DNA of 47,246 bases. It comes from an uncultured Candidatus Saccharibacteria bacterium (lineage in GTDB: Bacteria > Patescibacteriota > WWE3 > UBA101185 > UBA10185). Location of the stretch: positions 76,336 through 123,581 of the forward strand of contig CAZTDP010000001.1 of assembly GCA_964612565.1 (NCBI GenBank), read 5' to 3'. This document shows, piece by piece, positions 39,001 through 42,000 of this stretch (position 1 is its first letter; every line of letters starts with the position of its first letter). The position numbers are program-made.

Positions 39001-42000
39001 GTTTGATCGTACTAGTTTGCATCCTTTTGGCGATGACAGGTGGTAAGCGCACAACCACAACAGCCCCGTTTAAGGATGATACAGATGTAGGCGGCACTGA
39101 ATCAGTGATACCTGCGGTATCTAATATAAAGCCGGGGGATAACTTAAAGGAGGTTCAAAGCACCAACCAAGAACTTAGAAACGTGAACCAACAGACTACA
39201 GGTACCGGATACACAATGAACTACGTCATTGATAAAACGATAGACAGGCTTGTAACAAACTCCGAAGGAAAAATTGTGGCAATATTTAAATACCCTGAAT
39301 ACGGAGTAGATGATTACACAAGCTCCGCAAAAGTTAAGTACTCGCTAGCCAAGCCTACTGAAACGCTTTATGTAAGTAATGCGGTGGGTGTAAAGATAGA
39401 TGTTTATCCTAACAAAGGAATTGCTTATACGTACAATGAGTATACTCAAAACGTGCAGGAAATATTGGTATTTAAACCTACAACACTAAATGAATTTCTG
39501 ATGTACTTTGGGAAAATGTATACTTACGAGGTCTACAAAGGGAATTAAAACGGTATTGCCGGAGGAGGTTGAACCGGAATAGCCGGCGATGACTAGGGAT
39601 CCATAGTTGTGATACCTGTCAGCTCCTCAACGGCATTCGAAAAATTGCCAAGAATACCTGTTATACTAAAATCGAGTCCAAAAAATCCGGCAACTATAGA
39701 AAAAATAGCGTAAAAAGCTATTACAATTAAAAAACCTAATAGTGCGGAAGTCCATGTTCCCCTTGCAGCCTCAAGACCCCGAGGGTTTCCCAAAGCCATG
39801 GAAGCTTTCCATGCACCATAAACAATAACGCCTACTAACACAACACCTACGAGCACAAATCCCCAATTTAAAACCCTTACAAATACAAGGGTTAAATCGG
39901 CCAAACGAGGATTGTTATCTAAGTCTTGTGCAAAAGCAGGTAAAACAACTAACACAAATGTAAAAAAGGCTGCAAAGGCGCGGAAAAGTTGTGATTTTTT
40001 CATAAACTCACTGTGCCGCTTGATAAAGAAACACCCAACAAATTAACTAAAATTGTTTTAATTCCGAAAGCGATTAAACACAGTATGAAAGCAACAATAG
40101 ACCATGTTAAAGACCTTTGAGCTTCTTGCACTGCCTTAGGATCTCCCATAGAAAGCATGTATTTGTAAAGAGATATTGAGACAGCAATAAAACTTACTGC
40201 GATACCAAGGATTATCGCAATATTTGCAAACACCAAGGCGGCCGATCCCAAATTGGCACCTGCTCCTAAGTTTGCGGGTACTTCAATACTATCAGTAACT
40301 GTGTTAAAAAAATCAGCCATATAAAATGATCCAAAGGGGCCCGGGCCAAACCGGGCCCAGCAAACTTGTCAAACATTTGCGGCGGTACCCCTGTATCAGT
40401 AAGACTCCAAGGATCCTGTATCCGCACCAAGAAGAGAAAGTAACAGCGACCTCACACCGTAAACGATAAGCAAACCTACGCCTCCGATCACAGCGTACGT
40501 AAGAGTCTTTTGTGCAGAATCGACGGCAGCTTTATCACCTTGGGATGTTACGTATTTAATAAAACCCAAAGCTAACATAACAACAACAATCGCCACACCT
40601 ACCACAATCAAGATGTTGGTTATAACTGTAACCAAAGAGTTTACGGTTGTTATCTGAAGTCCACTAATGGCTGTAGTACCAACAGCCTGTTGAGCTAAAA
40701 CTTTAGTTTGTAATAATTCCATCATATTTATTTAATTAGTAAATTACACCTCCTTAAAAGAAAATTAAGCACCAATAATATTTGTCATTATAACCCGCAG
40801 GATAAATACTGACAACATAATGAAAATGACACCAAGTATTGCGGCAGTGAGCTGCTCTTGGGCGTCTTTAAGCTTCATAGGATCGCCTTCACTTGCCATA
40901 AAAAGGTAACCGGCATACATAATCATGAGAATTCCAATAAAGATTCCTGCGTAGTATAAGATTTTTACTAAAGGGGATACTAAGTCTTCAAGATTACTGA
41001 TTTTAGGACCCTGGTACTCTTCCCGCTGACCTAAAGACGCAGCGTCTATAACGCATATATCACTAGAATTACAAATAAGATCTCCTATACAAGAAGCGAC
41101 TATGTTTGTACAACAAGGCTGACCTTCGCCTCCGCAAGTATTTGACTGACAGGTAGGGTCTGTGGTACACACCCCAGAAACACACCTCTCGTATTGAGGG
41201 CAATTAGCAGCGGAGCCACAAGTGCCGTTTGGAGAACACTGGGTTACATTAGACCCTGTGTAAGTAGCACAAGTCCATACACCGTCACCTGTAGCATCAT
41301 TTAATACTGTAAATTCGCAAAATAATCCGATGCCACACCCTCCGGAACCTTCTACCTCACAGGTACCTGAAGCGTTACAGGATGGAACTCCGGACGCAAA
41401 AGCCTCAGGGCATGTGTCGCCCTCAGCCGCGAAAACCGAAAACAAGAATGTTGCAGCAAACAAGACTGTAAAGAATATTAAATATTTTTTAGCTATTTTC
41501 CCCATGTAGTATTAAATATATTATACTTTTAGTTAACTGCCAACAAACTTAATGCTTAGCCCTCAGCTCTGCTATAATAATAAAGTAATGCCCACAACAA
41601 ATCCCAGAAATAAAAATACCTCGGTCGGAGTAATATTTGCAGTGATATTCCATAGCGTGTTTATTGTTGCATCCTCAACATTTTTAACCCTTAAAACCCA
41701 AGCAAGCGACCCGTGCAAAAACATCAGCGACGTCGACGACCAAGCCAAGTGCTACGAAGATCAAATCGAAAAAAAACAAGATGAATATCAATCCACCAGC
41801 AGCAAACTAGAAGATATCCGCAAAACAAAAGATGATATTACAAAACAAATAAATGATTTACTCGGCCAACTATCGGTAACGCAAGCTCAAATTGATAATC
41901 TTCAAAAACAGATAAACGATGTTAAATCCCAACTAGAAGAAATAAATGCAAAACTAAATGACAGTAAAGACGCGCTAAACCAGAAAATCTCGGTGAGAAA

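Follow-up and report, generated by a model that had tools for sequence, protein, structure and literature searches.

The stretch of DNA analysed here (hereinafter, the window: 47,246 nucleotides of contig CAZTDP010000001.1 from an uncultured Candidatus Saccharibacteria bacterium of the WWE3 lineage) encodes, on the minus strand at positions 40765-41505, a protein of 246 amino acids (aa) that is probably a modular, minor VirB2-like pilin, with a cysteine-rich head inserted between the signal peptide and the pilin module. An earlier reading of the sequence (hereinafter, the original prediction) had proposed, in the first gene of a pilin operon, a signal peptide, a Gly/Thr/Cys-rich domain of ~130 aa with 18 Cys and a two-helix pilin module. 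This architecture is real: the gene is a genuine open reading frame (ORF) with an ATG start, it is the 5'-most of four genes on the same strand, and the protein contains exactly 18 Cys, all of them between residues 32 and 151. The identical ORF is present in two independent assemblies (SRR8925806 and SRR8925805) and, therefore, is not a sequencing artefact. The parts of this gene, which we denote head-pilin, are the following (AF2, AlphaFold2; pLDDT, predicted local distance difference test):

40765..41505, minus strand: head-pilin gene, 246 aa, with signal peptide, 18-Cys head and VirB2-like two-helix module; first of the four-gene pilin array
41425..41505, minus strand: predicted Sec signal peptide, codons 1-27 (basic start, hydrophobic core, cleavage between VFAA and EG), from sequence reading, hydropathy and an AF2 helix at residues 2-26
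41026..41424, minus strand: head, codons 28-160 (~133 aa), Cys/Gly/Thr/Ser-rich, 18 Cys, sequence orphan; AF2 pLDDT mostly below 60
41053..41136, minus strand: copy of a 6-Cys module, codons 124-151, CGGEGQPCC-x6-C-x5-C-x5-C (C-CC-C-C-C)
40765..41025, minus strand: conserved neck (Y-x-G-P-x-I) and pilin module (helix, SEGDP loop, helix), codons 161-246 plus stop

The N-terminal segment MGKIAKKYLIFFTVLFAATFLFSVFAAEG, with its basic start, hydrophobic core and AxA-like site, reads as a Sec signal peptide, and the AF2 helix spans this segment; its VFAAEG end is common to the closest relatives (L024, L026 and L028). The head that follows is strongly biased in composition, with 19 Gly, 18 Cys, 14 Thr and 13 Ser among the 134 residues from 27 to 160; the Cys density of 13.4% (18 of 134) compares with 1.15% in the 37 other ORFs of the window (binomial P = 3e-14). 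Hydropathy analysis detects two hydrophobic segments in the remainder of the protein (residues 175-206 and 215-246), and two AF2 helices (residues 172-204 and 209-244, pLDDT 79-85) form a helical hairpin that is the confident part of the model. The location of a 133-aa head between the signal peptide and the pilin module departs from the pre-pilin that consists of a leader and the module only.

Judged by sequence, the module belongs to the known Patescibacterial family of VirB2-like pilins. The Pfam family PF18895 (T4SS_pilin; T4SS, type IV secretion system) matches residues 172-239 of the head-pilin with 27.4 bits against a gathering cut-off of 26.6, and the scores of ten relatives are in the range of 21 to 39 bits. 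On the same stretch, the TrbC/VirB2 family PF04956 reaches 16.7 bits (E 0.0083), under its cut-off of 27.9, and the NCBIfam family NF045849 (Mbov_0395 family pilin-like conjugal transfer protein) weakly matches the C-terminal ~70 residues (E 8e-4), also under the curated cut-off. The module is the same as in the three short pilins encoded downstream, as the original prediction had it, with 27-29% identity in the alignment, and 29 columns are invariant in the module alignment of the head-bearing members. The class III signal peptide, with its prepilin-peptidase site, and the long, hydrophobic N-terminal helix of type 4 filament pilins are not found in the head-pilin, where the signal is of the Sec type and the module is C-terminal. 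No match to the VirB5/TraC family was detected in Pfam at E values up to 1 or in the PDB sequence search.

Variation and composition of the head across related loci

Relatives of the head-pilin were collected by homology search (16, of 213-399 aa), by a genome scan that added 19 loci and by a metagenome scan with the neighbouring SpoIID-domain protein as the query, which added 80; the layout of the related loci was surveyed by running a hidden Markov model of the module over all their ORFs. Altogether, there are ~100 related loci, mainly from candidate division WWE3, with more distant relatives in Levyibacteria and Blackburnbacteria, and the architecture that combines a signal peptide, a Cys-rich head and a VirB2-like module is kept, as a class, in ~60 of them. 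A family census by profile search with the module alignment returned only proteins shorter than 170 aa, mostly fragments of head-pilins at contig edges, and was unusable for counting. With regard to a viral origin, IMG/VR contigs yielded no relative of the head-pilin. The WWE3-type loci share a fixed layout, in which one to three large Cys-rich head-pilins lie beside the SpoIID gene and are followed by three short, Cys-free pilins; the Saccharimonadales loci examined encode 5-6 short pilins each. Locus L071 (2345-5932) carries three tandem head-pilins (395, 364 and 408 aa), and the protein core compared for their modules is identical in all three copies.

The length of the 50 heads that were measured after crude removal of the signal peptide varies from 62 to 498 aa (median 234), and their Cys content from 8.8 to 17.7% (median 12.7%). 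The number of Cys is even in 49 of the 50, the parity that complete disulfide pairing predicts; the single exception may reflect the cut point. Bacteria of the Candidate Phyla Radiation (CPR) have been reported to encode DsbA/MdbA-like and VKOR proteins (bioRxiv 10.1101/335083). Other variants include a complete protein with a mini-head of ~45 aa (P0028) and a 348-aa head-pilin from Blackburnbacteria (L017, 5176-6222) with a 280-aa head that contains only 6 Cys, is not Cys-rich and looks beta-rich.

For the head encoded in the window, no homologue was detected in the sequence searches. An exhaustive phmmer search over 1.84 billion (1.84e9) representative proteins returned the self-match only, and a word-indexed search with the head alone found nothing; Pfam, at E values up to 1, contains no family for this head or for ten other heads, and the PDB sequence search produced only noise. 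In a tblastn comparison with the first 21 related loci, no significant match to the head was obtained, with the flanking genes being 44-69% and the pilin modules 51-62% identical. Those relatives that come closest in SpoIID identity (64-71%) carry a head of 264 aa, also with 18 Cys, that shows no convincing alignment to that of the window.

The head constitutes an exchangeable cassette of hypervariable sequence, with conserved sequence on either side, 5' and in the pilin module. Clustering by similarity sorts the 51 distinct heads into 29 groups, 19 of them with a single member, and the heads of different types are unrelated. Unrelated heads are found in 12 of the 20 pairs whose modules share at least 90% identity (in this comparison, module identities under 0.9 are ungapped and unreliable). 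Heads of the same type retain their Cys columns (32/32, 36/36, 55/59 and 29/31), with the non-Cys identity at 34-62% and the pilin module at 83-98%, the combination of fixed Cys spacing and varying sequence that the original prediction had suggested looking for. In three pairs of loci (L007/L010, L039/L051 and L030/L032), the flanking DNA is ~83-94% identical and the similarity is lost exactly over the head; for L007/L010, it stops ~10 codons into the ORF and returns 9 nt before the conserved neck Tyr. Tandem head-pilins with unrelated heads have module DNA that is identical in 224 of 225 positions within L001, and likewise within L002, compared with 88% identity (12% difference) between the modules of the two loci; this near-identity of tandem modules indicates either that they underwent gene conversion or that a very recent duplication was followed by replacement of the head. 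In L002, one head (7771-9447) is built from an internally duplicated unit of ~215 aa. Six-frame translation of the window revealed no silent cassettes or template of the kind used by diversity-generating retroelements, that is, no second DNA copy of the head and no other match to the Cys-module profile, and no reverse transcriptase turned up in the window scans.

The constancy of the module next to such variable heads bears on an alternative under which the hairpin only anchors the Cys-rich head in the cytoplasmic membrane, so that the protein would be a membrane-anchored surface protein, an adhesin or a receptor. We regard this as unlikely, albeit the most likely of the alternatives. Two hydrophobic hairpin helices would sit stably in the membrane, the window scans detected no assembly ATPase nearby, and heads of up to ~500 aa would crowd a pilus lattice. 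Moreover, variable Cys-rich extracellular proteins with a proposed role in attachment to other cells have been described in CPR bacteria (PMC4736985); these proteins, from Peribacteria, are similar to the heads in being exported, rich in Cys and variable at the strain level but are very large (mean 1,655 aa) and lack a pilin module. However, with 29 invariant columns and near-identical DNA between tandem copies, the module is over-constrained for a simple anchor; its family also includes the three short pilins transcribed with the head-pilin and the arrays located inside T4SS clusters of Saccharibacteria, and the fixed stoichiometric layout of four genes across the loci suggests a heteromeric assembly.

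A recurring unit with six Cys, C-x4-7-CC-x3-13-C-x2-9-C-x2-9-C, often opening with CGxxGxxCC, was found 44 times in 35 head-pilins by regular-expression count, against 13.1 +/- 3.1 in shuffled sequences. The copy in the window protein (residues 124-151) has the spacing C-x6-CC-x6-C-x5-C-x5-C, and the head-pilin scores 33.5 bits (E 2.4e-9) in an hmmsearch of the window with the Cys-module profile. An AF2 model of this copy, built with 10 aligned copies, reaches a pLDDT of 76.8, with a beta-hairpin at its end. Its Foldseek neighbours are, without exception, knottin-type peptides, with TM-scores of 0.5-0.7 and no E value below 0.49; the best TM-score (0.67/0.71) is that for the 37-residue Conus peptide Mo3964 (2MW7), which is also the best PDB match for a profile of 23 copies of the unit (E 0.044).

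The classic inhibitor cystine knot (ICK) has six Cys with the spacing C-C-CC-C-C and 1-4, 2-5, 3-6 connectivity. The module in the heads has a different spacing, C-CC-C-C-C; the matches to ICK toxins and to the Conus peptide are not significant, and the likeness is probably due to convergence. The recurring 6-Cys unit, its model and its knottin-type neighbours are compatible with the putative small disulfide-knotted modules envisaged in the original prediction, but the spacing differs from that of the classic knot and none of the structural matches is significant. Over the head as a whole, the AF2 model of the full-length protein has a pLDDT of 39-70, too low for a meaningful fold search.

The toxins and inhibitors nearest to the 6-Cys model raise another alternative, namely, that the protein is a pro-protein from which a secreted, knottin-like effector, toxin or inhibitor is cleaved at the Y-x-G-P-x-I neck and released, the module being a carrier or, thereafter, an ordinary pilin. 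In line with this, the Y-x-G-P neck shows no variation among the head-bearing members aligned and is missing from the headless orthologue sequences examined, and known VirB2 pilins are processed at their ends (PMC12037004). Nevertheless, this scheme appears very improbable: the Foldseek matches in question are not significant, no protease site is defined, Pfam and PDB sequence searches linked the heads to no known toxin family, and a domain with a structural or binding role would account for the even number of Cys and the modular growth as well as a toxin would.

The pilin array and its conserved neighbourhood

The head-pilin gene is followed by three short pilin genes and is divergent from a gene for a SpoIID-domain protein; on the other side, downstream of the array, lie further genes of a conserved block (TM, transmembrane):

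40396..40725, minus strand: short pilin 1, 109 aa, 0 Cys; PF18895 22.9 bits; orthologues in nearly all loci at 44-69% identity
40000..40320, minus strand: short pilin 2, 106 aa, 1 Cys; PF18895 25.9 bits
39593..40003, minus strand: short pilin 3, 136 aa, 0 Cys, with its own signal peptide and a C-terminal tail, overlapping pilin 2 by 4 nt; PF18895 16.9 bits
41515..41543, minus strand: promoter-like site TTGGCA-17-TATATT in the 46-nt divergent spacer common with the SpoIID gene; consensus match only
41552..43435, plus strand: coiled-coil and SpoIID-domain protein, 627 aa, divergent from the array; PF08486 (1.5e-19) and synteny
33684-35078, minus strand: 464-aa protein with signal and multiple TM segments, conserved syntenic neighbour
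35079-38948, plus strand: 1289-aa membrane protein with a C-terminal HELGH motif, conserved syntenic neighbour
38955-39548, plus strand: 197-aa TM-anchored protein, conserved syntenic neighbour
29824-33573, plus strand: 1249-aa secreted protein at the far end of the conserved block, 41 Cys (3.3%)

All three short pilins match PF18895 below its cut-off. The intergenic gaps along the four-gene array are 39, 75 and -4 nt. The best promoter-like match of the region (TTGTCA-17-TATAAT, 11/12; 40787-40815, minus strand) falls within the 3'-terminal part of the head-pilin gene, shortly before short pilin 1, and, if real, would allow expression of the short pilins above that of the head-pilin; promoter-like sites in this region are not in excess of those in shuffled sequences.

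The SpoIID gene is the most constant neighbour of the array, being divergent from the head-pilin in essentially every related locus, and its product could be a cell-wall-opening, VirB1-like partner of the array; according to a published survey, most Patescibacteria with VirB2 homologues lack VirB1. The order of the neighbours (SpoIID, array, 197-aa, 1289-aa, 464-aa and 1249-aa proteins) is kept in the relatives. Searches of Pfam, NCBIfam and PDB, including those with orthologue profiles, found no match for the 464-, 1289-, 1249- and 197-aa proteins. In the 1289-aa protein, the N-terminal ~270 aa are conserved and the exported C-terminus is variable; the version in the window has the HELGH metalloprotease-like motif with a weak Peptidase_M78 match, and the counterparts in L001 (12453-16253) and L002 (11986-15831) have a faint Peptidase_C39_2 match instead, according to precomputed annotation. 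The Cys of the 1249-aa protein form a dense cluster around residues 770-830.

This gene order is the basis for an alternative in which the array is part of a distinct envelope apparatus, not a T4SS, built with the SpoIID-domain, 1289-aa, 464-aa and 197-aa proteins, such that the name 'T4SS pilin' would be misleading in this lineage. The strict conservation of the order with these neighbours across the WWE3-type loci is compatible with such an apparatus, as are the failure to find genes for T4SS machinery in the window, the sub-threshold TrbC/VirB2 match and the non-significant fold match of the hairpin. However, ~40% of the Patescibacterial VirB2-like genes are located away from virB4 even in genomes that have virB4 (PMC12102498), and the 464-aa protein shows a weak similarity (25% over 256 aa, E 8e-4) to a large ORF beside a Saccharimonadales pilin array. 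We consider a separate apparatus improbable; if it did exist, the machine would change, and not the role proposed for the head.

The large ORF beside the Saccharimonadales array shows no match to VirB6. In the Saccharimonadales locus L020, a 157-aa protein (4780-5253) with a weak NTF2-like match (MecA_N, E 9.5e-4) is encoded directly upstream of a six-gene array of short pilins and next to an ORF of 1176 aa with a weak match to the TM region of the 464-aa protein of the window; the two are, possibly, VirB8-like and VirB6-like, respectively.

The window as a whole is chromosomal DNA of a Patescibacterium, with genes for DnaG, sigma-70, KsgA, L25, SmpB together with tmRNA, and five tRNAs. Elsewhere in the window, a rolling-circle Rep-like gene (20151-21104; PF23343, REP_ORF2-G2P) is followed by a large serine recombinase (21094-22572), the 3' end of which overlaps a tRNA-Ala gene (22543-22618, minus strand); this region (20151-22618) looks like a small mobile element integrated at a tRNA gene. 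A camelysin/TasA-family protein (Peptidase_M73, 1783-2370) adjoins an S26 signal peptidase (2445-2882), a pairing (1783-2882) that resembles the SipW-TasA fibre operon of Bacillus. There are also two dCTP-deaminase-like genes (9169-9894 and 28420-28824), the second of which encodes a shorter protein (134 aa), with a match confined to the C-terminal portion of the profile.

A candidate host-recognition pilin

Taken together with the family context, we favour, with modest confidence, the view that the head is a surface-displayed, variable binding domain carried by the pilin module, which makes the head-pilin a strong candidate for the component that would recognise the host cell. Under this scheme, the signal peptide would export the head, which would fold extracellularly into stacked, small disulfide-bonded modules. 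The loop of the helix-loop-helix subunit lines the lumen in solved conjugative pili, and both termini are exterior (PMC12037004); an N-terminal head would therefore project from the surface of the filament. The head-pilin would be incorporated along with the three short pilins: the presence of four separate pilin orthogroups, each conserved in its own right, suggests that the filament is heteromeric, and the bulk of the head favours a minor subunit, either in the first, tip-forming layer or sparsely distributed, at low frequency, along the shaft. The head would then bind a surface structure of the host bacterium and supply an adhesin or VirB5-like function, and head exchange by recombination would retarget the binding. 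Where the flanks are fixed, hypervariability typically marks a surface facing a changing partner; in an episymbiont, this partner would most simply be the host envelope.

The location of the head-pilin at the tip is much less certain than the display of a binding head on the surface. The most specific version of the proposal, which we put forward only tentatively and hold to be possible rather than probable, is that, in WWE3/Katanobacteria-type episymbionts, the head-pilin is the determinant of host specificity, a VirB2-based modular pilin that would cap a T4SS-type pilus in place of the missing VirB5 or adhesin, with the disulfide-knotted head exchanged among strains as a cassette and the module kept constant by gene conversion, so that hosts are retargeted.

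Several observations weigh against these proposals. Headless first-position orthologues exist in some more distant lineages (SpoIID 46-57% identical); these are proteins of 83-131 aa with 0-1 Cys, encoded so close to the SpoIID gene that a head would not fit in between. The head is therefore optional, an expandable insertion that varies with the lineage and is located between the signal peptide and the module, and the base role of the array does not require it. In a Foldseek search against PDB, the full AF2 model retrieved generic helical hairpins, with nothing below E 0.7, and the Aeropyrum pernix conjugative pilus (8dfu), at the 8th rank (TMt 0.54) among these hairpins, is not a significant match; the model has low confidence over the head and reveals no binding function. 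The VirB3, VirB4, VirB6 and VirD4 families of Pfam and NCBIfam are unmatched among the scanned ORFs of the 47-kb window, and a Walker A motif is absent from all 37 window ORFs tested; with no gene for T4SS machinery in the window, the T4SS link therefore comes from the pilin family alone. Finally, cyclisation or end processing is known for some VirB2 pilins, and a permanent N-terminal head would preclude either.

One of the headless first-position pilins is a 107-aa protein in L087 (5591-5914). The original prediction had named an absent or frameshifted head in close relatives as evidence to its contrary. The head is not frameshifted in the relatives: the 75-aa ORF of L013, the only apparent truncation, results from a scaffold gap of 100 N with the duplicated motif YNGPIIDSLEKIL on its flanks. 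Absence of the head does occur in some more distant lineages.

Both the VirB2-like family of Patescibacteria and its tandem arrays are known already. The family genes are located near virB4 in 1,135 of 1,948 assemblies (PMC12102498), and the PF18895 arrays, of 2-11 pilins, have been placed in Patescibacterial T4SS clusters, are essential in Southlakia and come without an identified adhesin or VirB5 (PMC12102498, PMC10633639, PMC12857230); the main Patescibacterial survey, in particular, detected no adhesins (PMC12102498), and its supplements mention neither WWE3 nor the accessions of the related loci. The described arrays, such as the T4SS pilins of Southlakia epibionticum SEML1 and the 'Sec-secreted array' of Nanosynbacter TM7x, resemble the one analysed here in the two-helix module and in being tandem, chromosomal sets of 2-11 divergent paralogues in monoderm episymbionts (PMC12102498, PMC10633639). 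Unlike the head-pilins, with their hypervariable, disulfide-rich heads of 62-498 aa, the pilins described so far are short (~100-170 aa), with no N-terminal domain reported, and the array in the window adjoins a SpoIID gene, not virB4. What is new is the pilin with a large, exchangeable N-terminal domain: full-text literature searches on PF18895, on Cys-rich pilins of Patescibacteria or CPR and on modular VirB2 found no description of such a VirB2-like pilin, in agreement with the remark in the original prediction that no characterised VirB2 with such a fusion was known to its author.

Other systems share some features with the head-pilins. The weak profile matches to the Mbov_0395 family of Mycoplasma integrative and conjugative elements (NF045849) and to TrbC/VirB2 (PF04956) connect the module with conjugation pilins, among them those of monoderms, but both are below the curated cut-offs and these families have no head domain. 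The tip proteins VirB5, TraC and TrwJ of Gram-negative T4SS are similar in the proposed role only, as minor, tip-located, host-binding components of the pilus; VirB5 is a separate protein with no VirB2 fusion and no detected sequence similarity to the head-pilin and is absent from the Patescibacterial systems. In the Trw system of Bartonella, multiple variant copies of TrwL and TrwJ have been proposed to bind erythrocytes of different hosts (PMC12857230). The modular type IV pilins of Streptococcus sanguinis (PilB with a vWA module and PilC with a lectin module) are likewise minor, adhesive pilins grafted to a binding module (PMC8179133, PMC9934059); unlike the head-pilin, they belong to the type 4 filament class, have a class III signal peptide as well as a long N-terminal helix and carry the extra module at the C-terminus. 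By analogy, then, the closest concept would be the S. sanguinis modular pilin, from an unrelated class, and the closest functional analogue, VirB5 or the TrwL/TrwJ variants of Bartonella.

Patescibacteria account for a large share of bacterial diversity, and those that have been cultivated live attached to host bacteria. In the only species in which this was examined, both the T4SS and its pilin array proved essential; to our knowledge, nothing is known about how Patescibacteria choose their hosts. A conserved module whose head is exchanged as a whole between ~90%-identical genomes has the expected look of a host-recognition element, and the head-pilin offers a concrete candidate that can be read from sequence; the head types could be correlated with the co-occurring host taxa in metagenomes. 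For the T4SS field, the idea of modular pilins would extend from type 4 filaments to pilins of the VirB2 type. If the host-specificity proposal is true, the head-pilins would be the first modular pilins for T4SS-type pili and would provide a readable marker of host range in uncultured Patescibacteria.

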